A DNA stretch of 64,000 nt, from the NCBI GenBank assembly GCA_964488505.1, contig CAZAUI010000002.1, positions 3,722 through 67,721 on the forward strand, read 5' to 3'. Source of the stretch: an uncultured Thermoplasmata archaeon. Lineage in GTDB: Archaea > Thermoplasmatota > Thermoplasmata > UBA10834. Below are positions 23,214 to 51,519 of the stretch, piece after piece (within the stretch, counting starts at the first letter, position 1; each line of letters starts with the position of its first letter). The notes under the pieces were generated by a model, which had not been told where the DNA came from, ran no database searches, and was given only the letters and a program-made list of their open reading frames with translations. The position numbers and the translations under genes were made by a program.

Positions 23214-23615
23214 CCGGGCCGGGGGAGCATACCCGCTTCTGTTCTTTAGGTTTTCCTGTGGAGATGCATGACAGTTAAGTATCTCGCGCTCGATACACCG
23301 GGCAGAGCTGCCACCTAGCACAGGAGGTAGCCGTGGGGAGAACGGACGATGGTCACATTCTACAGGCCCGAGGCGCACCGGTCATCGCTCATGCTTCCCG
23401 GCCGGAAGAGGGAGGCATCCTTAGACCAGGTGCTCATCAGGCTGCTTCTGCACCTCGGGGCAGGGCTGCAGGTCGGAAAGCCAGCCTGCTGATTCTCATC
23501 CGCTTGCGGCCGCAGGGTACGGCCGCGCAACATGTTTAGCCGCCGTCGAGTGCGGCACGCTGTTTGGGCCTGGGCCCGCGTGGCCCGGGGTTTGAGGTTC
23601 CATAGGAGGAATGAC

Positions 23616-25766: not shown

Positions 25767-27707
25767 CTAACCTGCCTTCTGTTCCTGCGGGGTTCCCGCG
25801 AGCCTGTAGCTGCCCTTGGGCACGATAATCTCGAACCTGGCGCCCTTGTCCGGCTCGCCGGTCTCCCTGATGGCGATGTTGGTCATCGCGAGGATCGCGC
25901 GCGACAGGTAAAGGCCGAAGCCCGCCCTGCCCGTGGTCTTGTTCTTGACGCGCTCGAATATCAGGTTCTTCATCTCGGTGGGGACCCCGACGCCGTCGTC
26001 CTCGACGAATACCGCGAGGCCCTCTGGACGCACCTCGTACGAGAAGGTTATCTTCGTCGTCCTCTCGCCGTGCTTGACCGCGTTCTCCGCGAGGTTCCTG
26101 AGCACCCTGGGGAACATCGGGTCGGCGAGGACCTCCAGGCCCTGGAGCCTGTTGGACACCTTCGCGCCCTTCAGGTCGAGCCCGGGCAGGTGGGTGTCCA
26201 GGGCCATCTTGGCGTCTATCCACTGCGGGCGGGTCATGCCTATCTTCTCGTACATCCCCGTGAACTTCAGCTGCGCCTCGAGGACGTCGGTGGACTGCTT
26301 CATCTTCCCGAAGTACTTCCGCGCGTTCTCGTCCGACCAGTCCTCCTCGAGTATGGACAGCCAGCCCCTGAGCACGGCCAGCTGGTTGAGCGCGTCGTGG
26401 CGCGTGATCGAACCGAGTATCTTGAGCTTGTCGTTAGCGGCCTCCAGCTCCTTCGTGCGCTCGCGGACCTTGGCCTCCAGGTCGGTATACAGTTCGTCGA
26501 GGTCGGCGGCCATCGTGTTGAACGCCTGGGCGAGGTCGCCAAGCTCGTCCTTGTTCCTGATGCTGACGCGCTCGTCCAGGTGCCCAGCGGCCATCCTCTC
26601 GGTCGCCTGCTTCAGCATCTCGACCGGCCTCGTCACGTTCGCGGACAGCGCCAGCGCGACCGCGAGGAACACAAGGAGCAGGAGGATGGACATCGCGAGT
26701 ATCTCGGACCTGAGCACTATCACGGGCTCGAGCACCTCGGCGGCGTCATGGCTCATGAGGAAGACCCAGCTGGAGCCCTCGTACTCGATGTATCCCGGGG
26801 AGACCGCGTACGAGTACAGCCTCTCGCGCCCGGCCTCCTGCGATATGAAGTAGCCGGACTCGCCCTCGACCTGCTGCACGTAGACGTCCTCCGACATGTC
26901 ATCGTATGTCCTGAACGCGTGCGTGGAATAGACCAGGCGCATATCCGAGGTGAGTATGTCGACCTCGGTGGTCTCGTAGACACGTGTCTCGAACTGGGCC
27001 TCCATGACTATCTCGGTCGCGCCCACGAAGGCACGCATCACGCCTAGGAACCGGTCATCCGAGTCGACGACCTTGATGCTGATCGGTATGCCGTAGGCAC
27101 CCGTGGCGGGGTCGAGCTCCACCTCGCCGACGCACTTGCCATCCTCGACCGTCTCCTGCCACCACGCCTCGTCGCTCTGGAGGTAGTCGGGAGACTTGGA
27201 GGTCATAGCGACAATCGCGCCGTATTCGTTGGACACCTGGACCTCCCCGTACACATCGATGCCGTGCTCCCGGATGTAGTGCTCGTCCAGTCTGTTCGCG
27301 AGGTCCGAGGACAGGTTGTTCGAGAGGATGTCGAGCATGAACGTGGACAGCTCGTCATCGTCGAAGGACGTCCAGTCATCCTCCTGTTGGTCGATGTACA
27401 GCTGAGGGTCCGCCATCGCGTCGAACTCCGCGTTCGAGTCCGCGAGGGAGTTCCTCATGTTGTTGCCCATGGCGATTATGATCATCTCATGCAGTTTCGA
27501 GTATATGCCCCGGTCCACGGTCAACGCGAAGTGCCTTGCGAGGTCGACCGACTCGGAGCCTATGGCCTCCTCGAGCGACTGGCGGCTCGCTTCAACGCTG
27601 TAGACGGCCAGGGACAGGAACACTATGGCCAGGACCAGGAGCGATGTCACGAGCTTGGTCGAGATCCTGCTGGACCTCCTCCTGAGCCCGTTCCTCAGAG
27701 ATACCAA
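25767..27707 (-). CDS. Sensor histidine kinase (TM, Cache-like ectodomain, TM, HAMP, His-kinase)
   Basis: TM1 is LVTSLLVLAIVFLSLAVYSV. The ectodomain has Cache-like blocks (DEAWWQETVEDGK..., LDPATGAYGIPISIKVVDSDDRFLGVMRAFV). TM2 is ILAMSILLLLVFLAVALALS. HAMP is VTRPVEMLKQATERMAAGHLDERVSIRNKDELGDLAQAFNTMAADL. The H-box is ITRHDALNQL. The ATP-binding domain has NLAENAVKHG...VEDDGVGVP...GFGLYLSRAI. The start is TTG at 27705-27707 and overlaps the upstream SBP gene by 13 nt. Confidence 0.85.
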   Translation of the reverse strand: MVSLRNGLRRRSSRISTKLVTSLLVLAIVFLSLAVYSVEASRQSLEEAIGSESVDLARHFALTVDRGIYSKLHEMIIIAMGNNMRNSLADSNAEFDAMADPQLYIDQQEDDWTSFDDDELSTFMLDILSNNLSSDLANRLDEHYIREHGIDVYGEVQVSNEYGAIVAMTSKSPDYLQSDEAWWQETVEDGKCVGEVELDPATGAYGIPISIKVVDSDDRFLGVMRAFVGATEIVMEAQFETRVYETTEVDILTSDMRLVYSTHAFRTYDDMSEDVYVQQVEGESGYFISQEAGRERLYSYAVSPGYIEYEGSSWVFLMSHDAAEVLEPVIVLRSEILAMSILLLLVFLAVALALSANVTRPVEMLKQATERMAAGHLDERVSIRNKDELGDLAQAFNTMAADLDELYTDLEAKVRERTKELEAANDKLKILGSITRHDALNQLAVLRGWLSILEEDWSDENARKYFGKMKQSTDVLEAQLKFTGMYEKIGMTRPQWIDAKMALDTHLPGLDLKGAKVSNRLQGLEVLADPMFPRVLRNLAENAVKHGERTTKITFSYEVRPEGLAVFVEDDGVGVPTEMKNLIFERVKNKTTGRAGFGLYLSRAILAMTNIAIRETGEPDKGARFEIIVPKGSYRLAGTPQEQKAG

Positions 27708-28891
27708 AGTTGGCCCTCCACGACCTGGGCCCGCAGGAGGTCGTATTGGATGTCGTGGGAACCAGCAGCGACGGCGACGGGCCCGAGCACGCTGGCGTAT
27801 GAGAAGCCCCCGTGGAGCTGCGCCCGCATGTTGTCCCTGGTGAGCTCCTTGCCCTTCATCAGGCCGTAGATGAGGTTGACCGCGTCGTACCCGCTCACGG
27901 CGTAGTGGGTCATGTTGCGCCCATAGACCTGCATGAACTCCTCGGTCAGGGACTGCGCCGGGATGTAGTTCGGGTTGTAGACCGCAGGCGCGGACACATA
28001 CAGGCCTTCGGCCTCCGGCATCGCCGTTATGGTGGGGGTCGACGCGGCGCTGGACCCGAAGATATGGCCCGAGTAGCCGGACTCGCGCACAGCGACGAGA
28101 CCTGCGATGGTGGCCTTGAAGTCCGCCGCGATGTATATCGCTTCGTTGTCCGCCAGCTGGTCGACCTTGGCCGTTATGTCTTCATCCTTGCAGCAGTAGT
28201 CGACCACCTCGGCGGTCCCTCCGGCCAGCTCGAAGGCCTCGGCCAGATGAGCGGCGATCTCTTCACCCATGACGTTGTCGGACCGCATGATGCCCAGAGT
28301 GGTCACGTTGAGAGAGTCGAGCATGGACAGAGCGGGCGCCACCTCCTTCTCCGTCCCGGGGTAGTACCTGAAAGACCAGTTGCTCTCCTCGAACCCTAGC
28401 GCGTTCGCGGTCGCGATCCCCACCAGGGGGACCTCGTACTGCTCCGCGAGAGGGATCAAGGGCCTCGTGCAGCTGCACGCGGCGGATATGTAGATGAGAG
28501 GATGCTCGTCGCGCTCAAGCTCCTCGAAGAGCGCGACCGATACGTTCGGGTCGGAGCCGCTGTCCCTGACGACGATCTCTATCATCGCGCCGTTGAGGCC
28601 GCCCCACCTGTTCAGCTTGTCCGCCGCTAGGTTCATGCCGTCCACGACGTCCGCCAGGTGCACGCTCGAGCCAGTCAGGGGAGCTATGACGCCTATCTTG
28701 ACCGTCTCCTCGGCCGCGAAGAAGCCCTGGAGGTACACCGCGACGATGATCGCGGAGACGACCACGGCCAGTATGGCCACACGATATGTCCGTAGGGTGC
28801 GCGGCGGGCCGCGAACGGGGCTCGCAGCGGGCGCTGTGGGCTCTTCCATGACCAAGTCTGTCCCCTCCATCACCGACTCATCCCTGGCCAA
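27695..28891 (-). CDS. Membrane-anchored type-1 periplasmic-binding-protein fold solute-binding protein (LivK/Peripla_BP_6-like)
   Basis: It has an N-terminal anchor (YRVAILAVVVSAIIVAVYLQGFFA). This is followed by VKIGVIAPLTGSSVHLADVVDGMNLAADKLNRWGGLNGAMIEIVVRDSGSDPNVSVALFEELER...PLVGIATANAL, typical of branched-chain amino acid / amide-type SBPs. The start is either TTG 28891 or ATG 28870. Confidence 0.8.
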   Translation of the reverse strand: MARDESVMEGTDLVMEEPTAPAASPVRGPPRTLRTYRVAILAVVVSAIIVAVYLQGFFAAEETVKIGVIAPLTGSSVHLADVVDGMNLAADKLNRWGGLNGAMIEIVVRDSGSDPNVSVALFEELERDEHPLIYISAACSCTRPLIPLAEQYEVPLVGIATANALGFEESNWSFRYYPGTEKEVAPALSMLDSLNVTTLGIMRSDNVMGEEIAAHLAEAFELAGGTAEVVDYCCKDEDITAKVDQLADNEAIYIAADFKATIAGLVAVRESGYSGHIFGSSAASTPTITAMPEAEGLYVSAPAVYNPNYIPAQSLTEEFMQVYGRNMTHYAVSGYDAVNLIYGLMKGKELTRDNMRAQLHGGFSYASVLGPVAVAAGSHDIQYDLLRAQVVEGQLWYL

Positions 28892-29530: not shown

Positions 29531-29657
29531 CGTCCTCCCTGTGGGAACCAGTGGCCGATTGAACGGGAAGGTGGCATAAAGAGGTTTTCCCGGCCTGGGA
29601 ACACTCAGGCAGAATGCTTACATAGTCCGCGGGGCCTCATCGGTGCCGGACGACCAC

Positions 29658-30206
29658 ATGGACCCGTTGATGCACCTGGTGCTGCCGCTCCTGTTCCTCC
29701 TCGCCATCAAGGTGGACGCCAGGAGGGCCGTCCTGCTGGCGCCCTTGGCTGTGCTGCCGGACCTGGACGCGCTGTTCGGGCTCCACAGGGCGCTCGGGCA
29801 CAGCTTCATACCCATACTCGTGGTGCCGATGGCGATCCTGGCGTTCTCGCATTTCAAGAGACCTGAGTGGATGCCTGCGGCAATCATAGCGCAGTTCTAC
29901 CTGGCCTCGCACGTGGTCCTCGACCTAGGAGGCGTCGCGTTCCTGTGGCCCTTTGTGGAGGACCAGTTCTTCCTCAGGTTCGCCGTGACCCTGAACGCCT
30001 CGGACGGGTTCGACATAGGCTTCGATGCGGACTGGGGCATGCAGGAGCTGGCCGAGATGGAGACGACCTACATCCTGTCGGAGTTCGGGTTCGCGCTGAT
30101 CCTGCTCGCCGTTCTGTCGGCAGCCGTGTTCAGGAAGGAGGTCGCCGCTGCCCTCGCGAAGGCGTGGTCCTTCGTCAGGACCCTGCCGGGGCTGCTCAAG
30201 CGCTGA
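29658..30206 (+). CDS. Membrane-bound metal-dependent hydrolase, YdjM/DUF457-like
   Basis: MDPLMHLVLPLLFLLAI...LAVLPDLDALFGLHRALGHSF...SHVVLDLGG, with 4-5 TM helices. ATG 29658 is preferred over GTG 29643. Confidence 0.7.
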   Translation: MDPLMHLVLPLLFLLAIKVDARRAVLLAPLAVLPDLDALFGLHRALGHSFIPILVVPMAILAFSHFKRPEWMPAAIIAQFYLASHVVLDLGGVAFLWPFVEDQFFLRFAVTLNASDGFDIGFDADWGMQELAEMETTYILSEFGFALILLAVLSAAVFRKEVAAALAKAWSFVRTLPGLLKR

Positions 30207-30330
30207 CCCGTGCCCGGACGTATATGAACCTATGCAGAGCCCGGGCGTGCTGGCCCCTCGAGAGGTTACCGCGCTGGAATGCCTGAGAGGGCCAGTAGCG
30301 TTATCAGAACCGATAACTCTGGGCCGACCG

Positions 30331-30338
30331 TATATATA
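30331..30338 (+). promoter_or_regulatory. TATA-box-like element upstream of the giant + strand gene
   Basis: tatatata at 30331-30338 lies ~55 nt upstream of the ATG at 30393. It is inside the longer 30279 ORF, which argues for the 30393 start. Confidence 0.4.
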
Positions 30339-30392
30339 GACCCGGCACGAGTTCTAACTAGATGCCGGCCAGCGGCATCGGTGTCACCTTCC

Positions 30393-33300
30393 ATGTCAAT
30401 CCCTTCGGAACATGCGGGCACGCACGAGGCCAAGACCACGCCCTCGGAGGCCCTCGCATCGTTCCTCGTCTGCGCGTTCATGCTGCTGTCCTCGCTCTCC
30501 ATCTTCTCAGGGGACGCGGTCTCCGACCCCGTGGTCGTGGACAACCCCGATGACACCCGCACGGTCGTCTGGGACTTCGACTCCCCGGACGGCTACCTGA
30601 TGACCGGCACCGAGCTGGTCGGCGGGGACGCCGTGCTGGAGTACCTGAACCTGACGGACGGCGACCACGAGTACGAGGACTACTCCGCCGGCACGCTGAC
30701 GAACGTGGACGTCGAGAGCATCCCCGGGTCGGCCATCATCGGCAGCGGGGGCCCTGTCGAAACCTATGTCTCCGAGCCGGGGCCGAACGTGACCGACTCA
30801 TACATCTCCGAGAACTGGCCGAACGACAACTACGGGGACGCCTCGGGCCTGTACCTGGACTCGGAGGCTGATAAGATGATGCGCATCGTCATGCAGTTCG
30901 ACGTATCCTCGATCCCGAGCATCGCGCACATAACGAACGCGACGCTCTGGCTGTACCAGCAGTCGGGGTCCAGGGGCGACGACATCGTGTGCAACGTGTA
31001 CAGCCTCTCCGTGCCCTTCGTCGAGTCCGAGGTGTCCTGGACCAGGAACGCGACGGCCTCCCCGTGGACGAACGCAGGCGGAGACTACGACAACTACTCT
31101 TACGGGACCCTCACGATCCCGATCCGACTCGGATGGCATGGCGCGGACCTATCCGAGCTCGTCGAGGCCTGGACCGACGGCGCTGTGACCAACAACGGGT
31201 TCATCCTGGTCCCAGAGCCCACGGTCAGCGACTGTCAGAAGGTCTTCCAGAGCTCGGACGACAACGAGCCCATCGAGCACGGACCCTGGCTCATAGTCAA
31301 CTACACGGTCCCTGCGAACGCGGGCATCATGGAGTCCAGGGTGATTGGCCCGGGCACCAACTCGACATTCACATCGGCATCCTACTACACATCGGCGCTC
31401 TCGCGCCTGGACGATGACTTCTCGGGCACGGCGGCCTTCCCCGAATGGAACTGGATGAACACACCCGCCGCTTACGACATCAACTCGACCACGCCGGGCA
31501 GGCTACACGTGACGGGTTCGCCGGAGACCGAGGCGCAGGACACGACGGTCACCTGCAACTTCATCCACCAGTCCGTCACCGGAGACTTCTCCGCGTCCAC
31601 GTACCTCGAGGACGGGTTCACGGAGATGACCATGGGTGCGGGCCTGCTGCTGTACGAGAGCAGCTCCGACTGGATGTACGTGGCAAAGGCGCAGTTCGCG
31701 ATGAACAGCAGGGTACAGGCGGTCGTCTGCCAGGGCGGCACGAGCACCTTGATGTCCGATATCGTCTGGCCGGAGTACTACAGCGCCCATCTGAAGATGG
31801 AGAGGAACTCGACAGGCGTATGGTTCTACGCGAGCACGGACGGTGAGTCGTACCAGCTGGTGTACAGCCATGAGTCCGGGACGCCGCTCGCTGACTGGCT
31901 GTCGGTCGGCCTCTTCGTATACTCCAACTCGTTGACCCAACCGGTCGTCGAGTTCGACCACTTCACAGTGGCGTTCTCCGAGATGCCTTCGGTGGAGGTC
32001 AAGGTGAGGTACGGCAACTCGACCCTGCTCTCTGACCCGTCCTGGGAGGACTGGGAGTCCGCATCGACCATCTCGAGCCCGGCGACCCTGGGCCAGACGG
32101 GCAAATACCTCCAGTACAGGGCATCCATATCATCCCCCGAGGACTGGTACACCCCGGTGTTCTCTGACTTCGACTGCTGGTACGGTATGTACCGCGACAG
32201 CGGGGTGATCACGACCCCTGAGCACGTGCCCACGGACTTCAGCTACTGGATAGGCATGACCACGAACGAGACGGACGACGGCGGGTATGTCATGTACAGG
32301 TACTCGACCGACGGCGGGGACACATGGCTCCCGGCCGGAACCGGCGGCTCGTACTCCATATCATCGATCGAACCGTCCTTCATGATAAGGGCCGAGGTCT
32401 ACACGTACGACACGCTGAGGTCCCCGCGCGTGCACTCCGTCTCCGCGACGCATGTGACGGCCGTGTCGTACCTCGAGGTCGTCGCGCCGTCCCAGGTCGT
32501 CGCCGGCGCGTCCTTCTCTGTCACCATCACGGCCAAGGACGGCTCGGACGACACGATGGTGCACTGGGACGGCGGCCTGCAGCTCATGGCGGTCGACCTC
32601 GACGGTACCACGCCCCTGCATCCGGACCTGGCAGAGACCGAGGCCTGGATCACGGATTACGGCTCGGTCACCATCCTGAACGAGCGGTACACGCAGGCCG
32701 GGGCCATCCTCATCAGGGTCGAGACGGAAGAGGGCGCGTTCGGGCTCAGCGGGGCCATCGAGGTCGTCCCGAGCACGATATCGTCCCTGCACATCGAGCC
32801 CACGGTTGACACGCTCCTGGAGGGCGCGCAGCAGGTGTTCACGGGGGTGGCTAGGGACGCGTACGGGAACACGCTCACGGACGTCAACTACTCGTGGTCC
32901 GTGGACGAGGACATAGGATCGCTCAACACCTACAACGGCAGCACGGTGATATTCACGGCAGGGGAGGCGGGGAACTCGGGATACCTGAGCGTGTCCGTCG
33001 AGGGGCTCACAGCGTCCCTGCTCATCACGATCACGCACACGGCGAACGCGCCTGTGTTCACTGAGGACCCGGCGGACCAGAGCGTCTACGAGGATGCGGG
33101 CTCGTGGACCATCGACCTGGCCCCGATCGTCGTGGACGCCGTCCACCAGGACTACGAACTCAGGTGGTACGCGACCGGAGAGAACGTCATCGACGTGAGC
33201 GGCGAGAACAGGACGGGGAACCTGGTCATGACGCTTAGCACGCTGCCCGACATCTCGGGGACGGATGTGCTCAACGTGGTCGTCGTGGACCCGGACGGCC

Positions 33301-35318
33301 TCTGGTCCTCGACCAGCTTCTCGGTCGAGGTCGAGGCCGTGAACGACTGGCCGGTCATATCGCTGATAGACCCGCTGGTCGTGCACTACGAGGTGCTATA
33401 CATCTACAACCTGAGGTACTACATCGAGGACGTGGACAACACGCAGGACGAGCTGTCCATGTGGGTCGATGACGAGAACGCGCCCTATGTGACCGTCCAG
33501 GACCTCGCGCTGCACATCACCTATCCGGCCGAGATGGACGGGATGACGCAGACCGTGATCGTCACCGTGAGCGACGGCATGGCGGGCACATCCACGGTCA
33601 TACAGGTGACGGTCTCGGACAACAACGTGCCGGTGACGGCGGACACCATCCCGGGGGTCGACATATACCAGGGCGAGGCGCTGCTGGACGTGTTCGACCT
33701 CGACGACTACTTCACGGACCCTGACGGGGACGACCTCTCATTCGCGTACTGGTACAGCCACGTGCTCGTGAACGTGAGCGCGGACCACGAGGTCAGCTTC
33801 TTCGCGCCCACGGACTGGTGGGGCAGCGAGTATGTCATATTCAGCGCGACGGACGAGTACGGCGCCAGGGTCGAGAGCGCGGCGACCGTCCTGGTCCACC
33901 GGGTGAACCAGGCGCCGGTCGTAGAGGGCGTGCCCGACCTCGTGGTGAGGTACGACCTCGAGTACAGGTTCGACCTGACCTGGTACGTCTCGGACCCGGA
34001 CAACGACGTGGACGACCTGCATATCACCACGAACGACCCGCACGCGGTGCCGTCAGGGATGATTCTCTCCCTGGAGTACCCGTTCAGCATGACCGGCACA
34101 TCCGTGTTCGTCACGATAACCGTCAGCGACGGGGAACTCCACGACAACGACACCGTCAAGGTCACCATAGGCGACAACACGCCGCCGAGCGCGACCGCCC
34201 TGCCGTTCCATTCGTTCCAGGAGGACCTGCCGGTGCCGTATCCCTCCACGGGAGGGCTGGAGGCGTACTTCGACGATGAGGACGGCGAACAGCTCACGTT
34301 CGAGGCCTTCTCGCTCACGGACGGGGTCTCCGCCAGCGCATCCGCGGATCCCCAGGACGAGTGGAGCGTCGCGTTCACCACGACGGCCAACTGGAACGGG
34401 TACGCCTGGTTCGTGGTCCGAGGCACGGACCCCGGAGGGGCGATCGTCGAGACGGTGGCCGAGCTGACGGTCTTCTCGGTCCCCGACGCGCCCGCGATCG
34501 CATTCAACGAGACGATAGAGGTCTACACGGGCGTGCAGAGGGCCGTGGACCTGTACGAGTGGGCGAGCGACCCCGACCTGCACGCGCAGGGGCTGGAATT
34601 CACCGTGTCGAGCACGTACGCGGCCTACGCGACCGTGATAGAGGGCGTGCTCATCCTGGAGTTCCCGCACGAGTTCCTGGACGGCGGCGAGGAGCAGAGG
34701 GCGATCGGCATATCCATATCGGTGTCGGACCCGGACGGGCTCCACGGGACCGACGTCCTGTCGGTCGTGGTCGTGGGGACGCTCGAGCCCGGGAACGACG
34801 AGTGGCTCATCGTGGGCATGGTCGCCATGGCTGCGGTGGCCGCAGGCTCCTTCGTGGTCGCCATGAGGCTCAGGAAGAGGCCGTTCGTCATCAAGGACAT
34901 CATGGTCATTCACAACGACGGCTTCCTGATAGGCAGGGCCGCGGCGAAGACGGAGGGCGAGATAGACGAGGACGTCCTGAGCGGCATGCTCACGGCGGTG
35001 CTCAACTTCGTCGAGGACTCGATGGCGAAGACGCAGGACGGCCTCAGGAGCTTCGGCTTCAAGCACTACAAGGCCCTCGTCAAGAGGGGCAGGATGACCT
35101 ACATGGCGGTCGTGTACGAGGGAGACGCACCCGAGGCGGTCGAGGACAGGCTCGCGGAGTTCCTGGCCAAGGTGGAGAAGATCTACCGCAAGAGGATAGA
35201 GAACTGGACCGGGGACATGGACACCGACTTCGCCGGGATAGAGGTGCTCCTGAAGGCGTTCGTGAAGGAGAACAGCAGGAAGGCGAACGGCCTGAACGGC
35301 AAGGGGAAGGCCGCCTGA
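30393..35318 (+). CDS. Giant single-pass surface protein (~1641 aa): signal/TM, DNRLRE-like domain, ConA-like lectin/glucanase domain, Ig-like (Big_2-type) domain, ~7 cadherin-like modules, TM, cytoplasmic Roadblock/LC7-like domain
   Basis: The N-terminal hydrophobic segment is ALASFLVCAFMLLSSLSIFSG. A DNRLRE-type stretch (SYISENWPNDNYGDASGLYL...MRIVMQFDVSSIP...ATLWLYQ...SEVSWTRNA) lies at about nt 30790-31095. A ConA-like region (PEWNWMN...GRLHVTG...AGLLLYESSSDWMYVAK...YASTDGESYQLV...VGLFVYS) lies at about 31420-31980. Module ends are cadherin-like (VEVEAVNDWPV, VTVSDNNVPV, VLVHRVNQAPV, VTIGDNTPP, LTVFSVPDAPA). The TM WLIVGMVAMAAVAAGSFVVAM starts at nt 34803, followed by RLRKRP. The cytoplasmic tail spans 34866-35315. 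Confidence 0.85.
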   Translation: MSIPSEHAGTHEAKTTPSEALASFLVCAFMLLSSLSIFSGDAVSDPVVVDNPDDTRTVVWDFDSPDGYLMTGTELVGGDAVLEYLNLTDGDHEYEDYSAGTLTNVDVESIPGSAIIGSGGPVETYVSEPGPNVTDSYISENWPNDNYGDASGLYLDSEADKMMRIVMQFDVSSIPSIAHITNATLWLYQQSGSRGDDIVCNVYSLSVPFVESEVSWTRNATASPWTNAGGDYDNYSYGTLTIPIRLGWHGADLSELVEAWTDGAVTNNGFILVPEPTVSDCQKVFQSSDDNEPIEHGPWLIVNYTVPANAGIMESRVIGPGTNSTFTSASYYTSALSRLDDDFSGTAAFPEWNWMNTPAAYDINSTTPGRLHVTGSPETEAQDTTVTCNFIHQSVTGDFSASTYLEDGFTEMTMGAGLLLYESSSDWMYVAKAQFAMNSRVQAVVCQGGTSTLMSDIVWPEYYSAHLKMERNSTGVWFYASTDGESYQLVYSHESGTPLADWLSVGLFVYSNSLTQPVVEFDHFTVAFSEMPSVEVKVRYGNSTLLSDPSWEDWESASTISSPATLGQTGKYLQYRASISSPEDWYTPVFSDFDCWYGMYRDSGVITTPEHVPTDFSYWIGMTTNETDDGGYVMYRYSTDGGDTWLPAGTGGSYSISSIEPSFMIRAEVYTYDTLRSPRVHSVSATHVTAVSYLEVVAPSQVVAGASFSVTITAKDGSDDTMVHWDGGLQLMAVDLDGTTPLHPDLAETEAWITDYGSVTILNERYTQAGAILIRVETEEGAFGLSGAIEVVPSTISSLHIEPTVDTLLEGAQQVFTGVARDAYGNTLTDVNYSWSVDEDIGSLNTYNGSTVIFTAGEAGNSGYLSVSVEGLTASLLITITHTANAPVFTEDPADQSVYEDAGSWTIDLAPIVVDAVHQDYELRWYATGENVIDVSGENRTGNLVMTLSTLPDISGTDVLNVVVVDPDGLWSSTSFSVEVEAVNDWPVISLIDPLVVHYEVLYIYNLRYYIEDVDNTQDELSMWVDDENAPYVTVQDLALHITYPAEMDGMTQTVIVTVSDGMAGTSTVIQVTVSDNNVPVTADTIPGVDIYQGEALLDVFDLDDYFTDPDGDDLSFAYWYSHVLVNVSADHEVSFFAPTDWWGSEYVIFSATDEYGARVESAATVLVHRVNQAPVVEGVPDLVVRYDLEYRFDLTWYVSDPDNDVDDLHITTNDPHAVPSGMILSLEYPFSMTGTSVFVTITVSDGELHDNDTVKVTIGDNTPPSATALPFHSFQEDLPVPYPSTGGLEAYFDDEDGEQLTFEAFSLTDGVSASASADPQDEWSVAFTTTANWNGYAWFVVRGTDPGGAIVETVAELTVFSVPDAPAIAFNETIEVYTGVQRAVDLYEWASDPDLHAQGLEFTVSSTYAAYATVIEGVLILEFPHEFLDGGEEQRAIGISISVSDPDGLHGTDVLSVVVVGTLEPGNDEWLIVGMVAMAAVAAGSFVVAMRLRKRPFVIKDIMVIHNDGFLIGRAAAKTEGEIDEDVLSGMLTAVLNFVEDSMAKTQDGLRSFGFKHYKALVKRGRMTYMAVVYEGDAPEAVEDRLAEFLAKVEKIYRKRIENWTGDMDTDFAGIEVLLKAFVKENSRKANGLNGKGKAA

Positions 35319-35399: not shown

Positions 35400-38300
35400 C
35401 TAGCGCGGAGGTGGCGGTGGCTCCTCGCCCTGCGGAGGCTGCTGTCCTCCCTGCGGGGGGCTCTCTTCCAGCATCTGGACCGAGTACCCGGTCATCTGAT
35501 TCATCTTAGAGAGCTCCTCGGACCTGGTCGCCTTCTTCCGCATCCCGAATATGAAGCCGATCGAGATGATGGCTATCAGGGCGAGGATCAGTATGACCAT
35601 CCACCAGTCGAAGCTGAACGTCGTCGCGCCCTTCACGATCACGGTCTTCACCGTCTCGTTGAGCCCGGCCTCGTCCACGGAGTAGTACTCGAGCGTGTGG
35701 TCGCCGCTGCCCCTGACCTCGAACTCGCCGTTGTACACGACCCAGTCGCCGCCGTCTATGCGGTACATGGTGACGGACACGCCTGAGCCGTTCCCGTCTA
35801 CCGCCACCAGCGTCACGTCTGAGCCGTCGACCGTCGCCGTCGTCGTGGGAGCCGCGAGGTCCACCTTCACGGTGTATGTGGAAGTCTCGCCCTCGTGGCC
35901 CGCGACATCGACGGCGTAGAACTCGAGCTCGTACGAGCCATCCTCGGCCACGGGGACCGTCAGCCCGGTCAGCTCCGTCCACTCGCCGCCGTCCATGCGG
36001 TACATGATCATCGCGAGGCCGGACGACTCGTCCGTGACCTCGAACGTCACGACCGCGTTCGCCGTGACCCAGCCGTCCAGGCCTTCGGTGCCCGCGACGG
36101 AGACCGAGGCCACAGGCGCGACCGTGTCTATCATGACCAGGAAGGTCCTGACAGGCTCCGCGTTGCCCGCCATGTCGGTCGAGTAGTACTGGAGCGTGTG
36201 GATGCCGTCCCCGGCCACGTCGAACGGGGCCGAGTATGTCTGCCAGCCCTGGCCGTCCAGGTTGTAGGATGTGTTCGCTACGCCGCCGGTGCCTCCGGTC
36301 GCGACCATGGAGACCTCGACATCGGACACGAACCATCCCTCGAGGCCCTCGTCGCCTGTGATCTCCAGGGTCGTCAGCGGGCGCTCCTCGGATATCAGGA
36401 GGTCGCCGAACAGGTCAAGGTCGTACGTGTCGAGCCCCATCACAGGCCATGTGCTGGATGCGCCGTCTTCCGCGTCGTACGCCAGCCGCGCACCCAGTCC
36501 GATGACCTCGCCCATGGATGCGTCCACGAGCGCCAGCGGGATGCAGAACTCGTACACCCTGTGTCCGTCCGCGAGCGCCTCAGACGGGCCGAACCCTAAC
36601 GCGCCCGCAAGGCCCTCGTGGTCCGACAGGGTCGGGTCGAAGGGCGCACAGTAGTCGTCGTAGTCGTAGTGCGTGGTCAGTGTGCCTATGAACAACGACT
36701 CGATGACGAACATGTCATCCTCGCCAGGGACCTGGTACTCGTCGTTCCAGGTGTCGAATGCCAACCCCGAGCCGTCCCCGACGGACTCCGTGAGGTCGCC
36801 GGTCGCGTCCATGAGCACGAACAGGTGCGTCGCGTTGTTCATCACATACATGGACGCCTCGACCTCGTTCGTGCTGTCGGCGGCCATGGCGCCGACCTCG
36901 GTCGCGCCGAACCACTCGCCGGCATCGACGGAGCCGTCCACGGACGGCGACTCGTACGCCCAGCCCGACTCCAGCAGAGGCGGAGACGGGTCGAAGTCGT
37001 CCTGGTCGTACGCGCTCAGATAGTGGGTGTCCGTGTCCATCGGCGAGCCCGCAGCGTCGTACAGCGTCAGCAGGACATAGTACGGCCAGTACTCCGCGTT
37101 TTCCACGAGCCACGCGTCGAAGGACAGCTCGACATGCTGCACGCCCTCGACGAGCGTCACCTGGGTGAGGTACCCGTCCACGAAGTCGTAGTCGGCGTCG
37201 CGGAGCTCCCCGTACACCCAGAAGACCCCTCCGTACGTCACATAGACCGCCGCGTCCACCGTGAGGTAGTCGTACAGGAGGTCGCCGTCATCGTCCACCG
37301 CCTCGTCGGTGTGGGGTGGATAGAACCAGGCTGGCGGGCCCTCGAAGTCGTCGTATACGTAGTAGTTGTTCGTGTAGAGATCCTCGCTGGACTGGACCAT
37401 GCCCTCGGCGTCGTAGGCCGTCAGCTCGACCTCGAAGTAGTCGTACCAGCAGTAGGTGTTGTATATCTTCCAGCCCTCGAACATAAGCGTGACCACATTG
37501 TTCCCCGCGCTGAGGGCCCTGGTCTCGCTCACGCTCGCGTAGTACCAGCCGTAGAGATACAGGTCTGCCTCGACGGTGTACTCTCCAGGCTCGTAGCAGT
37601 AGACCCCGATCTCAAGGACGAGGTAGTCGTACAGGATGTCCGAGTCCCAGTCATCGCCGTAGTCGTCATGGATCCAGTAGTCGAGTTCCACGCCCAGCGG
37701 GTCGAAGTCTTCCGGATAGTAGTAAGTCGACGTCCCGTAGGAGCCGTAGTCGTACATGAAGGACGAAATGGCGTCGTATGCGTACATGTCGAAGTACCAG
37801 TACCCGCCATAATACGATTCCATCTGGATCTCGTTCGACGGTATCGCGACCTCCAGCATGGTCCTCTCGCCCTCGAGCAGGTACATCGAGAACAGGAACT
37901 CGTCGTTGAAGTACCCGTAGTAGTCCTGGGCATAGACCCAGATGTCGTAGTAGCCGTCCGAAGACGCGTTCACGTAGAACGTCATCACGAGCCAGTCGTA
38001 GAGACCGTTGCCGTCGTCGTCCCTGCCGTAGTCGGCGTACGGCTCCTCGAAGTACGCTCCCACGGGGTCGAATTCGTCCAGGTAGTACCAGTCCGAATAA
38101 TAGTAGACGGAATCGAGGATGACGGTCTCGTCCTCGTCGAACACATACATCTCGATGTATATCTGGCCGTCCAATCCGTTCATGACGAAGTCCTCGCCGC
38201 TCACCACGATCTCCCAGTAGTAGGTCACACCCTCCTCGATGAGGACCGCGTCCTCGACCCAGTACAGGTAGTAGTAGCCGTAGTTGTACACGTACACATC

Positions 38301-40901
38301 CGCCCCCAGGGAGTAGTTCCATGTGGGATCGGCGTCGACGGGCACCGTGAGGACAATCCCGTTGTAGTACCCGTCGGCGTCCGTGTCGACGCCCTCGTCG
38401 GTGACGGTCCCTATGGTCGCTCCTACGGGGTCGAAGTCCCCTGGATAGTAGTAGGCGGTGTTGTAGCTCTCATAATCGAAGTAGTAGGACGTGGCCTCGT
38501 CCCGCAGGTCCATGTCGAGGTAGAACGGGGAGTCGAGCCAGTTCACGTATATCTCGTACCCCGGGATCACGATCTCCCAGTAGTACGGCACGGCCTCCTC
38601 GAGGTGCACGGTCTCGGTGACCTCCATGTCCCACCCGCCGTAGTAGTCATAGACCCATGTGTGAAGGACGAAATCGCCGTCGGATACAGGGTCGACGGTC
38701 ACGTTGACCACGACCTCGTTGTAATACCCGTCCGAATCGGTGTCCCGGGCGCTGTCGGTCATCGTGCCGAAGTACGCCCCGTAGGGGTCGAAGTCGTAGT
38801 AGTAGTAGTACGAGGTGGTGTAGAACGAATTGTCGTTCTCGACCTCGGACTCAGAATCCCAGAGATGCATGTCGAAGTACCAGTTGCCTGATATCCCGGT
38901 CAAGTAGATGACCTTGGACGGGACGGAGATGTTGTACGCTATCGTCGTGCCCTCCGTCAGGCTCAGTGTTTCACTGACATGTTGCACTTGATTGTACCAC
39001 GGGTCGTAGACCCCCGCCTCGAACACATAAGTGTCTGTCTCGAAGCACTCTATGTACGCCGTGACCACGAGCGAGTTGTACAGGGTGTCGCCGTCAGAGT
39101 CCACTGTGGCCTCGTCCGGAGGCTCGACGAATGACGTCCGCGGACCCTCGAACTCGTCCGCGAGATATGTGGCCGTATAGTGCAAGTCGAAGTCCAGCCA
39201 ATCCCCGATTTCCGTGTAGAGGTCCATGTAGACGACGTACGGGCCGTCGAGGCCCGTCAGGTTGATCGCCATCGCGTCGAAGATGAGGTCGACCGTCTGG
39301 AGGCCGGCGTCCAAGGTGACCTCCACGCTCATCTCCTCTATGAACGTGCCCCAGTTGACTTCGTGCAGATTGACCTCCAGGACGAAGATGCCGGCTTCCT
39401 CCACCGCCACTGATGCGGACACCACGAGCGCGTCGTATTGGGTGTTCGAGTCGTCGTCGTCGACCGGGCTGTCCGAGTGGGGTGGCGCGAAATAGGCCGC
39501 GGGCGGGTCGAAGTCGTCGTACAGGTATCCGTAGGTCTCGAAGCCGTAGTAGGTGTCAATCAACTCGCCATAGTAATCGTACAGGTAGATGTCGACGAAG
39601 TACGGCCCGTCGGCGCCGTATGTGAATATCTCTTCGCCGGAGAAGCCGACGGTCACGTATGACGTCCCTGTCGGGAGCAACCAGTACCCGCCGGAGTACG
39701 ATATCGTGTTCGTGTATGCGTCGTTCAAGGACGCTGACAGGTACACGTATTCGTTCACGATTGACTCCAACTCGACGTCGACCATGAGGTAATCGAAGTC
39801 CCCGTCGGAGTCCGTGTCGTCGCCGTAGTCGTAGTAGGTCGTGCCGAGCTGCGCCTGGAACGTCTCCGTCCAAAGGAACGACATCGCCATCACGCCCGGG
39901 TCGGCGTACGAGTACAAGGTCAGGTTCGTGGCGTCGAAGAGCGTCGTCGGCGATGCGGGCACATCGACCAGGACGTATATCGTGGTCGACTCCCCCGCGA
40001 GCAGGTCGCCCGTGTCCGGGAACCCGTTCAGGTTGTTGTCATCGAGCGGGAACATCGAGCTGTCGAGGAGCGTGACGGTCCACCCGTACATCGACGTGTA
40101 CTCGATGTCGAACGAGTCCGTGAACGCCTGGCCGTTCCTGACCATGAGCGTGTGCATGGCGGTGGCGTCCCAGCTGGCCGTCTCCTCGCTGTAGGGCGTG
40201 AACCCTATCGGGCCCGTGTCGAACATGATGGCGAGGCCGGCGTAGAGCACATCCTGGTTGTAGGAGTACTCGGTCCCCAGTTCGCCCGTGGAGTCCTCGA
40301 TGCCCACGGTCACCATGTCCCCGCCCCAGCCGTCCGTGTACTGGTACTGGAACCATATCTCGCCGGTCTCGTGGAGGATGATCTCGAATGTCAGGTAGTA
40401 GTAGTACGAGTACCTGTAGACGTTGTAGTACTCGATGACGATGTACTGGTCAGGGTCGCTCTCGTTCCCGAAGGTCTGATAGTACAGGGAGTATGTTGGC
40501 ACGTAGAGGTCGTCCCAGCACGCCGCTACGATGTTGTTGGGGGTGTTCGTGCTGGGTATCGGGTCGTTGCTGAGGTCGGACGACCCGCCATCGAACTGTA
40601 GGAAGCCGTTCGTCGAGAGGTTGAACGCTGAATAGGAATTGCCGTAGAAGTCGAACGAGAAGCCGATCGGGTACGGCCCGCCGTAGGTGTCGTCTCCGGA
40701 CAGGCTCGTGTATGTGCCGGTGCCCGCTATCTCTATCCAGTTGTACGTGACGGTCGGTTCGGGGGAGTTGCTGTCGACCCAGTAGTACCCGTATCCGTCC
40801 TGGGCGCTCTGGTTCGCCCATGCCCCGTAGGACACGATGGCGAACGCCGAGACCGTCAACAAAACCACAAGCATGCAGGCTGAGAGCTTTCTAGCAATCA
40901 T
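35400..40901 (-). CDS. Giant single-pass surface protein (1833 aa): signal peptide, NIDO-like N-terminal domain, eight ~120-aa Tyr/Asp-rich repeats with DxDxDG loops, beta-sandwich domain, three Ig-like 'YxxDG...YYSxDxAGN' modules, TM, Pro/Gln-rich cytoplasmic tail
   Basis: The signal peptide is MIARKLSACMLVVLLTVSAFAIVSYGAWA. The N-terminal domain has IGFSFDFYGNSYSAFNLSTNGFLQFDG. For the repeats, see the repeat feature below. The C-terminal modules are SYNLDGQGWQTYSAPFDVAGDGIHTLQYYSTDMAGNAEP, MYRMDGGEWTEL...GSYELEFYAVDVAGHE and MYRIDGGDWVVY...GDHTLEYYSVDEAGLNE. The TM is WWMVILILALIAIISIGFIFG, and the tail ends PPQGGQQPPQGEEPPPPPR. Confidence 0.85.
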   Translation of the reverse strand: MIARKLSACMLVVLLTVSAFAIVSYGAWANQSAQDGYGYYWVDSNSPEPTVTYNWIEIAGTGTYTSLSGDDTYGGPYPIGFSFDFYGNSYSAFNLSTNGFLQFDGGSSDLSNDPIPSTNTPNNIVAACWDDLYVPTYSLYYQTFGNESDPDQYIVIEYYNVYRYSYYYYLTFEIILHETGEIWFQYQYTDGWGGDMVTVGIEDSTGELGTEYSYNQDVLYAGLAIMFDTGPIGFTPYSEETASWDATAMHTLMVRNGQAFTDSFDIEYTSMYGWTVTLLDSSMFPLDDNNLNGFPDTGDLLAGESTTIYVLVDVPASPTTLFDATNLTLYSYADPGVMAMSFLWTETFQAQLGTTYYDYGDDTDSDGDFDYLMVDVELESIVNEYVYLSASLNDAYTNTISYSGGYWLLPTGTSYVTVGFSGEEIFTYGADGPYFVDIYLYDYYGELIDTYYGFETYGYLYDDFDPPAAYFAPPHSDSPVDDDDSNTQYDALVVSASVAVEEAGIFVLEVNLHEVNWGTFIEEMSVEVTLDAGLQTVDLIFDAMAINLTGLDGPYVVYMDLYTEIGDWLDFDLHYTATYLADEFEGPRTSFVEPPDEATVDSDGDTLYNSLVVTAYIECFETDTYVFEAGVYDPWYNQVQHVSETLSLTEGTTIAYNISVPSKVIYLTGISGNWYFDMHLWDSESEVENDNSFYTTSYYYYYDFDPYGAYFGTMTDSARDTDSDGYYNEVVVNVTVDPVSDGDFVLHTWVYDYYGGWDMEVTETVHLEEAVPYYWEIVIPGYEIYVNWLDSPFYLDMDLRDEATSYYFDYESYNTAYYYPGDFDPVGATIGTVTDEGVDTDADGYYNGIVLTVPVDADPTWNYSLGADVYVYNYGYYYLYWVEDAVLIEEGVTYYWEIVVSGEDFVMNGLDGQIYIEMYVFDEDETVILDSVYYYSDWYYLDEFDPVGAYFEEPYADYGRDDDGNGLYDWLVMTFYVNASSDGYYDIWVYAQDYYGYFNDEFLFSMYLLEGERTMLEVAIPSNEIQMESYYGGYWYFDMYAYDAISSFMYDYGSYGTSTYYYPEDFDPLGVELDYWIHDDYGDDWDSDILYDYLVLEIGVYCYEPGEYTVEADLYLYGWYYASVSETRALSAGNNVVTLMFEGWKIYNTYCWYDYFEVELTAYDAEGMVQSSEDLYTNNYYVYDDFEGPPAWFYPPHTDEAVDDDGDLLYDYLTVDAAVYVTYGGVFWVYGELRDADYDFVDGYLTQVTLVEGVQHVELSFDAWLVENAEYWPYYVLLTLYDAAGSPMDTDTHYLSAYDQDDFDPSPPLLESGWAYESPSVDGSVDAGEWFGATEVGAMAADSTNEVEASMYVMNNATHLFVLMDATGDLTESVGDGSGLAFDTWNDEYQVPGEDDMFVIESLFIGTLTTHYDYDDYCAPFDPTLSDHEGLAGALGFGPSEALADGHRVYEFCIPLALVDASMGEVIGLGARLAYDAEDGASSTWPVMGLDTYDLDLFGDLLISEERPLTTLEITGDEGLEGWFVSDVEVSMVATGGTGGVANTSYNLDGQGWQTYSAPFDVAGDGIHTLQYYSTDMAGNAEPVRTFLVMIDTVAPVASVSVAGTEGLDGWVTANAVVTFEVTDESSGLAMIMYRMDGGEWTELTGLTVPVAEDGSYELEFYAVDVAGHEGETSTYTVKVDLAAPTTTATVDGSDVTLVAVDGNGSGVSVTMYRIDGGDWVVYNGEFEVRGSGDHTLEYYSVDEAGLNETVKTVIVKGATTFSFDWWMVILILALIAIISIGFIFGMRKKATRSEELSKMNQMTGYSVQMLEESPPQGGQQPPQGEEPPPPPR
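36999..39872 (-). repeat. Eight tandem ~120-aa (~360-nt) protein-level repeats inside the 1833-aa gene
   Basis: The anchor motif D/E-F-D/E-(G)-P recurs at aa 463, 583, 703, 822, 943, 1065, 1185 and 1302, with spacings of 117-122 aa. Each is followed ~18 aa later by an acidic loop (DDDDSNTQYD, DSDGDTLYNS, DTDSDGYYNE, DTDADGYYNG, DDDGNGLYDW, DDWDSDILYDY, DDDGDLLYDY). A first loop, DDTDSDGDFDY, lies at aa 361-371. Confidence 0.8.
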
Positions 40902-43700: not shown

Positions 43701-44627
43701 ATGAATGACATCCCTCGAGAGCATATTGCCGCAGTCATACCCGCATTCAACGAAGCGAAGACCATCTCTATGGTCATCCACGGAGTGAGCAAGTATGCGG
43801 GAGAGGTCATCGTCGTAGATGACGGAAGCAGCGACGGCACCGCTGACCTTGCCGTTTCTGCGGGAGCTAATGTGATTCGCATTCCCCGGAACGTAGGAAA
43901 GGGAAATGCTCTCGGAATAGGACTCACGACTGCTGCCCTCAATGGTAGCAGAGTCGTCGTGTGTCTAGATGCGGATGGACAGCACAATCCCGACGACATG
44001 CCGAGGATAGTAGCCCCGGTACTAGACGGTCGAGCAGACATGGTCATAGGATCGAGATTCTTGGACGCGAGCTCCAGAGAGCTCATTCCCACATACAGAC
44101 GCATGGGACAGAACATACTCACTTATGCGACCAACATAGGGAACACCGTCAGAATCACCGATTCACAGAGCGGGTACCGGGCTTTCAGGAAGGATGTCCT
44201 GAGAGGCTTCGAATACGCTGAATCCGGGATGGGTGTGGAGTCTGAGATGGTCCGCATGGCTGTGAGAAACGGACTCAGAGTCGAAGAGGTCCCAATCACG
44301 GCGCGATACGATGGATTGGACACTTCCAGCATAAGGCCAGGCAGGCATGGCATCGGAGTTCTGAATTCCGTTCTGAGATCTGTTAGGTCAGAACACCCGC
44401 TGCTCTACTTCGGAGTCGGTGGTCTTTTCCTCATGATCATTGGCCTGATACTTGGAGTGTACTCAGTCGAGCAGTACATTACAGTCAGCCAACTACCTTT
44501 CGGACCGAGTCTGCTGGCCACTCTGTTCACGGCGATGGGGACTGTGTTCCTCTTGGTCGGACTAATACTAAACGCGATAAGCAGTGTTGCCGCGTCGGAT
44601 CGTAACGGACGCATGAACGGTCGATGA
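43701..44627 (+). CDS. GT2-family glycosyltransferase, polyprenyl/dolichyl-phosphate hexose synthase-like, with two C-terminal TM helices
   Basis: AAVIPAFNEAKTISMVI...VIVVDDGSSDGTADLA...RNVGKGNALGIGL...VCLDADGQHNPDDMPRIV...DMVIGSRF. The C-terminal TMs are LLYFGVGGLFLMIIGLILGVY and LATLFTAMGTVFLLVGLILNAI. Confidence 0.85.
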   Translation: MNDIPREHIAAVIPAFNEAKTISMVIHGVSKYAGEVIVVDDGSSDGTADLAVSAGANVIRIPRNVGKGNALGIGLTTAALNGSRVVVCLDADGQHNPDDMPRIVAPVLDGRADMVIGSRFLDASSRELIPTYRRMGQNILTYATNIGNTVRITDSQSGYRAFRKDVLRGFEYAESGMGVESEMVRMAVRNGLRVEEVPITARYDGLDTSSIRPGRHGIGVLNSVLRSVRSEHPLLYFGVGGLFLMIIGLILGVYSVEQYITVSQLPFGPSLLATLFTAMGTVFLLVGLILNAISSVAASDRNGRMNGR

Positions 44628-44694
44628 AATACTTGACACAGTATTGACGATACGGTAGCAGTCATATCAATCACGCGCAATCAGGATAGATTAC

Positions 44695-45861: not shown

Positions 45862-45867
45862 GTCCAG

Positions 45868-51446: not shown

Positions 51447-51519
51447 GGAGATGCGCCGGTACCCGACTGCAAGAGCATCTCATCAATCAGGTTGCGGTTC
51501 GGTCTTCACCTCTTTTAAG

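Follow-up and report, generated by a model that had tools for sequence, protein, structure and literature searches.

Platforms built from longin and Roadblock domains, which work with Rab-, Rag- and Arf-type GTPases, are central to eukaryotic membrane traffic, and the prokaryotic roots of these platforms have mostly been discussed for the Asgard archaea and for MglA/MglB. In bacteria, the gene neighbourhood of the Group 1 Rup GTPases, described by Wuichet and Sogaard-Andersen in 2014, includes a conserved, so-called Unc protein that consists of an unknown domain, a transmembrane (TM) helix and OmpA (PMC4316618). In the available portion of that paper the Unc domain is referred to as being of unknown function and is assigned no fold, the Group 1 Rup proteins are noted to be without the G3 glutamine, and the neighbourhood is likened to the actinobacterial conservon, which employs a Roadblock protein. 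Rab-like GTPases are also known from a Thermoplasmatales archaeon and from Aciduliprofundum, with no partner named in the accessible text of the source (PMC4915359). Here, the subject is the cytoplasmic tail of a 1679-amino-acid (aa) surface protein encoded at positions 30279..35318, on the forward strand, of a 64,000-nucleotide stretch from an uncultured Thermoplasmata archaeon (GenBank assembly GCA_964488505.1, contig CAZAUI010000002.1, positions 3,722 to 67,721; G+C about 62%); the whole of this 64-kb stretch is referred to as the window. The tail is, by predicted structure, a domain of longin topology, and we infer that it rather probably serves the 1679-aa protein as a membrane-tethered partner domain for a small GTPase.

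The sole C-terminal TM helix of the protein (aa 1509-1529, WLIVGMVAMAAVAAGSFVVAM; 34803..34865, + strand, as for all features of this gene) is followed by the basic stop-transfer linker RLRKRP (34866..34883), with which the 150-aa tail begins (aa 1530-1679, the stop codon ending at 35318); the initial annotation had placed the TM helix, the linker and a tail of about 150 residues at exactly these coordinates. Between the TM helix and the start of the first strand of the predicted longin-fold domain (aa 1536-1667; 34884..35279; elements b1 b2 a1 b3 b4 b5 a2 a3) there are only six residues, and the linker is kept among homologues as R/K-R-K-K/R-P-F. Within the domain, helix a1 (DEDVLSGMLTAVLNFVEDSMAKTQ; 34965..35036) is the signature and most conserved stretch of the family in an alignment of 92 members, and a conserved W-x-G-D ... 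G motif lies between a2 and a3 (35205..35237). The basic, low-complexity C-terminal end (35280..35315) is probably disordered, with a predicted local distance difference test score (pLDDT) below 50 for tail residues 141-150, and neither its length nor its sequence is conserved among homologues. By the positive-inside rule the protein would have type-I topology with the tail in the cytoplasm, because a hydrophobic segment is present at the N-terminus, acidic residues precede the TM helix and four basic residues follow it.

No part of the protein is better conserved than the tail, which is a genuine, strongly constrained domain. Full-length orthologues have been found at 23 loci, all of them in metagenome-assembled genomes of uncultured Thermoplasmata/Thermoplasmatota and with synteny kept, and identity among orthologues is 53-86% for the tail as against 37-58% for the ectodomain. 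A word-indexed search returned 16 close homologues of the tail, all C-terminal fragments of larger proteins, in which MLTAVL.F.EDS is invariant. An exhaustive profile search covering 1.84 billion cluster representatives (50% identity clusters) yielded 3,836 relatives at E<=1e-3 and 1,342 at E<=1e-10; homologous tails thus recur on many other surface proteins, a point on which the initial annotation had called for a survey. Across 92 archaeal and bacterial members, the window tail included, G19, L21, M41, T43 and G116 (tail numbering) are invariant and D34, D36, G40, L42, A44, F48, L60 and A81 nearly so, with D34, D36, G40, L42, A44 and F48 of helix a1 at least 90% conserved; W114 and G124 of the W-x-G-D ... 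G motif are nearly invariant in the alignments of homologues. The window holds one copy of the domain only, a second having been sought and not found. The tail matches no model of Pfam or NCBIfam, whether scanned alone or within the complete protein, as would be seen if it were a low-constraint C-terminal extension or the product of a mis-called frame. Thousands of homologues with invariant motifs in two domains of life, a tail more conserved than the ectodomain and a confident, reproducible fold prediction leave that explanation with a negligible probability, and a reading of the tail as an artefact is excluded by the conservation data.

The fold of the tail was predicted in two runs of AlphaFold2, one with a 17-sequence alignment and one with a 92-sequence alignment that included bacterial members, and the resulting models have the same topology (mean pLDDT 79.2 and 79.0; predicted template modelling score, pTM, 0.74 and 0.71). 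In both models DSSP assigns strands to tail residues 8-16, 21-26, 61-65, 68-74 and 78-85 and helices to residues 35-54, 92-112 and 125-136, after which comes a disordered end; helix a1, with a pLDDT of 58-70, has the lowest values inside the folded part. In Foldseek searches of the PDB, 11 hits for the first model and 44 for the second reached E<=1e-3, and the 50 matches listed for either model consist entirely of longin or Roadblock proteins. Among the matches listed are AP sigma subunits, zeta-COP and the longins of Ykt6, Sec22b and VAMP7, as well as TRAPP longin subunits, Tca17, Mon1-Ccz1, SRX, MglB, MglC, LAMTOR, Asgard Roadblock proteins and dynein LC7; MglB, LAMTOR, the TRAPP longins, Mon1-Ccz1 and SRX are GTPase-binding proteins. 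The best superpositions are with longins, over 130-141 columns, and their template modelling scores (TM-scores) are moderate, not high: 0.63/0.68 for Ykt6 (rmsd, the root-mean-square deviation, 4.2 over 140 columns), 0.61/0.68 for SYBL1, 0.58/0.66 for Sec22b, 0.59/0.61 for sedlin and 0.58/0.62 for the TRAPP core. Matches of the Roadblock class have E-values of 3e-4 to 2e-3 and TM-scores of 0.30-0.58, and the superpositions that cover 76-135 columns only score 0.30-0.50.

The two classes differ in the order of their elements, Roadblock domains having an N-terminal helix and the topology a1-b1-b2-a2-b3-b4-b5(-a3) and longins the topology b1-b2-a1-b3-b4-b5-a2-a3 (PMC10933270). In the tail models the N-terminal Roadblock helix is missing, b1 begins six residues past the TM helix, and a2 and a3 come after b5. 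Because b1 is first and the C-terminal helices a2 and a3 are last, the predicted topology is that of a longin and not that of Roadblock/LC7. The five-stranded antiparallel sheet sandwiched by helices is present in both models and is common to the Roadblock class. The Roadblock/LC7 call made in the initial annotation therefore stood as to fold class, the two models showing the alpha-beta-alpha sandwich of longin and Roadblock proteins, and fell as to family label, since the topology is that of a longin and the Robl_LC7 family is not matched.

Membership in Roadblock/LC7 was rejected on this topology and on direct tests of the sequence. The window tail has no match to Robl_LC7 (PF03259) at E<=1 or at E<=10; the family was matched by 2 of 32 relatives, with a best E of 0.015, and a scan of 92 members did not place it among the 25 most frequently matched families. 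When the tail profile was compared by hhalign with human DYNLRB1 (whose sequence was confirmed as exact against the PDB), no alignment was obtained and the probability was 0.1%, so that the alignment with LC7 drawn earlier by eye is without statistical support, though topologically sensible for the core. No solved structure is related to the tail by sequence, as nothing but designed proteins or noise came up when the PDB was searched by phmmer and with profiles, and neither longin Pfam models nor PDB longins gave a significant sequence match to the tail-domain profiles; profile searches assign the tail to no other family either. The only GTPase-platform family that recurs over the 92 members is PF19036 (Fuz_longin_1, the first longin of the FUZ/MON1/HPS1 guanine nucleotide exchange factors (GEFs) for Rab), matched by 8 of 92 with a best E of 7.8e-4. 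These matches are collinear with a1-b5-a2 and amount to a hint: those matching members that were examined singly score 13-15 bits where the cutoff is 26.1 and belong to the subfamily of small proteins with two TM helices, and the window tail itself has no PF19036 match in the Pfam scan.

Longins have been placed in a broad PAS/GAF-like superfamily that includes ligand sensors (PMC4917890), and the domain lies directly against the membrane, from which it could be argued that the tail is a sensor of the PAS/GAF-like class for a small molecule or metabolite, reporting the state of the cytoplasm to the ectodomain (inside-out). This is improbable, as no PAS, GAF or other sensor structure is among the 50 Foldseek matches listed per model, no PAS/GAF Pfam is among the 25 families most often matched (32 and 92 members scanned), and the most conserved element is a helix instead of residues lining a pocket. 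The smallest Foldseek E-values are those to AP-complex sigma subunits and zeta-COP, and a small GTPase drives vesicle formation in Euryarchaeota (PMC10927574); both observations would suit a sorting or cargo-selection tag of the coat-adaptor type that directs the protein to a pole, a membrane patch or extracellular vesicles. Such a tag, too, has a low probability, if a shade above that of a sensor: the AP-sigma similarity reflects the common longin fold and no coat-like genes were seen near any member. The vesicle-forming system was also considered as a source of the partner and was rejected, since the proteins that act alongside its GTPase, ArvA, are ArvB (DUF2073) and ArvC (DUF2072), neither of which is related to the tail domain.

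A link between the domain and small GTPases is found in the gene neighbourhoods of its relatives. Eighty metagenome loci of diverse members were searched with a GTPase profile, and the tail domains were clustered at 50% identity. Small proteins with two TM helices have a Ras/Arf/Roc-type GTPase gene (271-275 aa) 34-57 nt downstream on the same strand in 6/6 loci. In the closest non-orthologous group, whose tails are 40-46% identical to that of the window and whose full-length members are surface proteins of 1900-2010 aa, a convergent GTPase gene lies 3-61 nt away in 4/4 loci. Two tandem GTPase genes stand immediately upstream at L059/L072, one is located 105 nt downstream at L102, and one 4.9 kb downstream in the L090 group. 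Altogether, adjacency is seen in clusters 3, 5, 6, 14 and 15 and in part of cluster 2, and its occurrence in at least five independent subfamilies seems unlikely to be due to chance, because the 42 loci of the orthologue cluster, which serve as a rough control, contain no such GTPase.

The GTPases adjacent to the domain form one family with canonical G1, G4 and G5 motifs and 31-85% mutual identity. Those of archaeal type carry a conserved C-terminal helical extension of about 100 aa (..D.I..DFC.Q.G.. to ..EVNKLRRWK.), examples being L024 5766-6581, L055 6481-7341 (-) and L115 8001-8822, and this extension is missing from the bacterial Rup proteins. At both bacterial loci an operon encodes a coiled-coil protein, a protein in which the domain is followed by a TM helix and OmpA or SH3, a GTPase and a histidine kinase, and the two bacterial GTPases read WDLAGED and WDLAGSE and are thus without the G3 glutamine. 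The coiled-coil proteins (L027 5360-5995; L028 4369-4992) share an N-terminal motif, E(K/R)IRDI(L/I)FGP(Q/K)(I/M)(K/R)(N/D)YE.RF, by which they may dock onto the longin-like domain or the GTPase.

The bacterial members of the family are 'OmpA family proteins' of Terriglobales of about 530 aa, SH3_3 proteins and one protein of Planctomycetota; in these a single TM helix starts about 20 residues after the end of the domain, and OmpA or SH3_3 is outside. An OmpA protein from Terriglobales matches the window tail by BLASTP at E 2e-14 (29% identity over 127 aa, spanning SGMLTAV..FV.DS), and P0247 and P0248, both annotated as OmpA family protein and from Terriglobales, match the family profile at about E 1e-29. 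As judged by sequence, the window tail belongs to the family of the Rup-associated Unc domain, because this BLASTP match, signature included, is to an OmpA protein of that architecture; the proteins were matched to the 2014 paper by the architecture and operon described there. The residues conserved in members adjacent to a GTPase are kept equally in the window tail, and a shared molecular function is argued on that account.

The architectures of the family are diverse. Among the best 150 of the 3,836 representatives the dominant layout is an N-terminal signal or anchor, 500-2300 aa of extracytoplasmic repeats (Big_9, cadherin-like, PKD, DUF11, CARDB), a TM helix and the C-terminal domain; the N-terminal hydrophobic segment is present in most large relatives, and a hydrophobic segment immediately precedes the domain in most relatives. 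Other layouts include small proteins of about 190 aa in total with two TM helices and the domain, proteins of about 570 aa with four TM helices followed by two tandem copies, which are possibly built-in pseudo-dimers, and soluble giants of 1100-2400 aa that carry two to three copies (P0032, P0034-P0037, P0040-P0049; loci L088, L099, L102). A hydropathy scan found no TM helix in most of these giants, and Pfam searches of two of them (P0032 and P0046) returned CARDB, a TPR repeat and a C-terminal DUF5915. In those layouts examined that have a membrane anchor, the domain stands next to the anchor on the cytoplasmic side. Fusions to TIR, DnaJ, RING-type, zinc-ribbon (P0219) and DUF835 domains also occur; DUF835 is listed as an inactivated KaiC NTPase-like signalling domain (PMC5847659), and the DUF835, TIR and DnaJ fusions fit a signalling or adaptor role. 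In some Thermoplasmata the gene for the tail-bearing giant is duplicated in tandem (L012 5426-15527; L042 219-10235; L040), giving two full-length paralogues head to tail, each with its own longin-like tail.

Longin and Roadblock domains are typically dimeric (PMC10933270), and the tandem two-copy members with four TM helices, the soluble giants with two or three copies and the fusions to DUF835, TIR, DnaJ, RING-type and zinc-ribbon domains, which imply partners beyond GTPases, suggest another function for the domain. The tail could be a dimerization or scaffold module independent of any GTPase, which would pair or cluster the giants or tie them to a KaiC-like/DUF835 or cytoskeletal partner, the GTPase-linked relatives being one specialization. 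This explanation, the chief rival, has a real, if minority, chance of being correct, and it gains from the want of neighbouring GTPase genes in the two largest of the sampled subfamilies. Dimerization is, however, compatible with GTPase binding, as the dimers known among longin and Roadblock domains constitute the GTPase platform; the equal retention in the window tail of the residues conserved beside GTPases also speaks against a scaffold alone, as does the presence of the GTPase family in an orthologue-bearing genome, CP070732.1.

A search with the GTPase of the closest group as query brought up a 'Rab family GTPase [Thermoplasmata archaeon]', 85% identical, as well as P0371. The latter is a full-length member of the GTPase family, 48-51% identical to the GTPases adjoining related tails, and it is encoded on CP070732.1 (1,966,570 bp), a chromosome that also carries the orthologue locus L016. 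Because both genes are on this chromosome, at least one orthologue-bearing genome encodes a candidate GTPase partner in trans. Tail-domain profiles run against all reading frames of L115, including the 382-aa gene beside the bin41 GTPase, found no domain.

Several observations weigh against a GTPase-partner function for the window tail. The window has no GTPase gene, as the initial annotation had stated: no P-loop GTPase motif occurs in any of its frames, and none of the 30 neighbouring ORFs scanned has a GTPase or Roadblock Pfam match. Neither is there a GTPase near the orthologue cluster in 42 loci, with flanks of mostly about 1-10 kb per side, so that for this subfamily the evidence of a GTPase link is homology and not gene context. 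Of the subfamilies sampled, the two largest, that of the window included, are without adjacent GTPases, the other large one having a GTPase in 1/30 loci only, and P0371 lies about 840 kb from the orthologue with no tail-domain gene adjoining it. All matches of sequence to longin and Roadblock profiles fall below threshold, and the Foldseek values are modest overall (E 2e-5 to 1e-3; TM-scores 0.45-0.68). No invariant arginine or glutamine that could be used as a catalytic finger is present among the 92 members, and the literature searched holds no binding or activity data on any member of the family. The small-GTPase link proposed in the initial annotation accordingly gains support from the gene neighbourhoods of the relatives and from the available part of PMC4316618, and not from the surroundings of the window gene or its orthologues.

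On balance, a partner domain for a small GTPase is the function preferred here, and it can be outlined as follows. Family members would be membrane-tethered partners of Ras/Rab-like ('Rup') GTPases, acting as a platform and probably as a regulator of nucleotide state. The tail, probably dimeric as in known longin and Roadblock platforms, would bind, on the inner side of the membrane, a Rab-like GTPase whose gene lies at another place in the genome, and would either alter its nucleotide state or recruit its active form. With an invariant set that has no arginine or glutamine finger and with two acidic residues capping helix a1, the tail might tentatively be seen as a platform or exchange factor in preference to a GTPase-activating protein (GAP) of the finger type. 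Helix a1 is the most conserved element and has the lowest confidence in the fold, which weakly suggests that it could be an interface ordered only upon partner binding. Signals may pass in either direction: ligand binding or clustering outside could change the recruitment or state of the GTPase (outside-in), or the state of the GTPase could position or cluster the adhesin (inside-out). Since no GTPase is found near the gene or its orthologues, outside-in signalling through a GTPase by the 1679-aa protein, which had been put forward earlier, is something we infer and do not observe.

The remainder of the protein is consistent with a surface receptor or adhesin. The gene is an intact ORF with a possible alternative start at M39, from which the product would be about 1641 aa, in agreement with the size of about 1640 aa given initially; the full ORF has 1679 codons for amino acids. 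An N-terminal hydrophobic signal or anchor (aa 58-78, ALASFLVCAFMLLSSLSIFSG; 30450..30512) is followed by a carbohydrate-binding-type domain of the DNRLRE / CBM96 / disaggregatase-repeat-like kind (aa 172-340; 30792..31298; NCBIfam NF033679 E 7.7e-22, Pfam CBM96 3.1e-10, Disaggr_repeat 3e-10) and by a concanavalin-A-like domain (GH43_C2 / DUF1349; aa 379-564; 31413..31970; Pfam PF17851 E 4.6e-13, PF07081 E 9.9e-9). Closer to the membrane are Ig/cadherin-like repeats (Big_9, tandem-95; aa about 1115-1407; 33621..34499), with three stretches matching Pfam Big_9 at E 2.2e-5 and a tandem-95 repeat match at E 8.8e-16 that is under the NCBIfam curated cutoff; Cadherin_4/5 matches are seen in relatives. 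With these matches, the earlier description of the ectodomain as adhesin-like, glycan-binding and cadherin-like appears reasonable.

The gene is part of a conserved order: MttB, histidine kinase, periplasmic binding protein, rubrerythrin, YdjM-like protein, tail gene and a convergent giant. The YdjM-like membrane protein gene (29643..30206, +; Pfam YdjM E 2.4e-7) lies 72 nt upstream of the tail gene and is directly upstream in at least 18 related loci. The window has two MttB-superfamily methyltransferase paralogues, at 21753-23378 (-) and 24274-25737 (+), presumably non-pyrrolysine members because their reading frames are uninterrupted, and the synteny of one of them with the giant gene extends over many loci of Thermoplasmata. 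Genes for a Cache-HAMP histidine kinase and a periplasmic binding protein (25767-28891, -) overlap by 13 nt, and in at least 10 orthologous loci the pair recurs upstream of the giant gene, two genes away. The convergent gene (35400-40901, -) encodes a second giant surface protein of 1833 aa, very rich in Tyr/Asp repeats, with Big_13-type Ig domains towards its C-terminus, a single TM helix and no more than a short tail that is rich in Pro/Gln and lacks a longin-like domain; its homologues occupy the same position in several orthologous loci. A comparison of the 539-aa and 234-aa genes downstream in the window with the neighbours of the L032 surface protein, an archaeosortase-like one included, found no similarity.

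Elsewhere in the window, two adjacent FtsX-like permease genes are located at 8058-11140 (-), the larger with an extracytoplasmic CARDB domain of a type that recurs in members of the tail-domain family. At about 44000-52000 the G+C drops from about 0.62 to 0.46-0.52 over GT2 and GT4 glycosyltransferase genes and an unannotated 577-aa ORF, a region that may have been gained by lateral transfer as an island for surface glycosylation; genes for GDP-mannose dehydratase and epimerase come after the glycosyltransferase cluster, at 54695-56717. A 1002-aa protein is encoded at 51520-54528 (-); zinc-ribbon and double-zinc-ribbon motifs are crowded into its N-terminal third, the Pfam matches listed lying at about aa 24-343.

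The link of the bacterial members to Rup GTPases was published in 2014, as the available part of PMC4316618 makes clear, and the literature searched contains no earlier description of the tail domain as longin or Roadblock and none of Rup systems after 2014. As far as can be told, and within that literature, three points are new: that the domain is assigned a fold, that the family takes in thousands of surface proteins of archaea, and that it is linked to the archaeal Rab-like GTPases. The domain defines a very large family without a Pfam model, with more than 3,800 representatives over Archaea and Bacteria that are repeatedly found beside Rab-like ('Rup') GTPases, and its proposed fold suggests a biochemical role for the unknown component of the 2014 Rup systems. 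It is also a candidate partner for the Rab-like GTPases of Thermoplasmatales-type Euryarchaeota, as these are reported in the accessible text of PMC4915359, and giant archaeal surface proteins may on this evidence be receptors or adhesins wired to a GTPase switch. A bolder proposal is that the unnamed domain is an ancestral, membrane-anchored, longin-type regulator of Rup/Rab-like GTPases in the Bacteria and the non-Asgard Archaea, most likely an exchange factor or platform and a distant homologue of the first longin of Mon1/Fuz/HPS1, and that the Thermoplasmata have plugged many giant surface receptors or adhesins into one Rab-like switch. In this elaborated form the proposal is doubtful; if true, it would mean that prokaryotes have a receptor-to-small-GTPase signalling system and that the longin-Rab partnership is older than eukaryogenesis.

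The tail domain can thus be compared with several known systems. With Roadblock proteins (MglB, a GAP/GEF of MglA, CvnB, LAMTOR2/3 and dynein LC7) it shares the five-stranded alpha-beta-alpha core; it differs in having no N-terminal helix, in its extra C-terminal helices and in its lower TM-scores. A likeness to the conservon is that the bacterial tail-domain genes are partnered with Ras-like GTPases and histidine kinases, as in the neighbourhood comparison made in the available part of PMC4316618. With longins (Ykt6, Sec22b, VAMP7, Bet5/Trs23/sedlin, AP sigma, zeta-COP and Mon1/Fuz/HPS1) the tail shares the order b-b-a-b-b-b-a-a in its predicted fold, and the role of platform or GEF for a Rab-type GTPase is a frequent one among longins (PMC10933270). 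Unlike these longins, the domain is covalently tethered to the membrane through the adjacent TM helix, is found in prokaryotes beyond the Asgard group and has its own signature, D.D..SGMLTA..F..DS and W.GD.

GltJ of Myxococcus xanthus offers a functional analogy only, as a membrane protein of an adhesion machinery that is tied to a small GTPase. Its cytoplasmic part, made up of zinc-ribbon and GYF domains, binds MglA-GTP directly. According to the accessible text of the source, GltJ belongs to the gliding focal-adhesion machinery, whose assembly follows an MglA-GTP gradient (PMC11135422). The system is bacterial, its GTPase is MglA and not a Rup/Rab-like protein, and the cytoplasmic domains of GltJ are unrelated to the tail. 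The closest comparison remains that with the Rup-associated Unc protein. Here the order is ectodomain, TM helix and domain, as opposed to domain, TM helix and OmpA in the bacteria, the outside is occupied by a lectin/Ig-like array of about 1500 aa where the bacterial protein has a peptidoglycan-binding module, and the window gene is without an adjacent GTPase, coiled-coil protein or output kinase. In both, the domain lies in the cytoplasm close to the membrane, with one TM helix leading from it to a binding domain outside the cytoplasm, and the relative of the window tail in Terriglobales is encoded in the very operon described for Unc, with a coiled-coil protein, a GTPase without the G3 glutamine and a histidine kinase.

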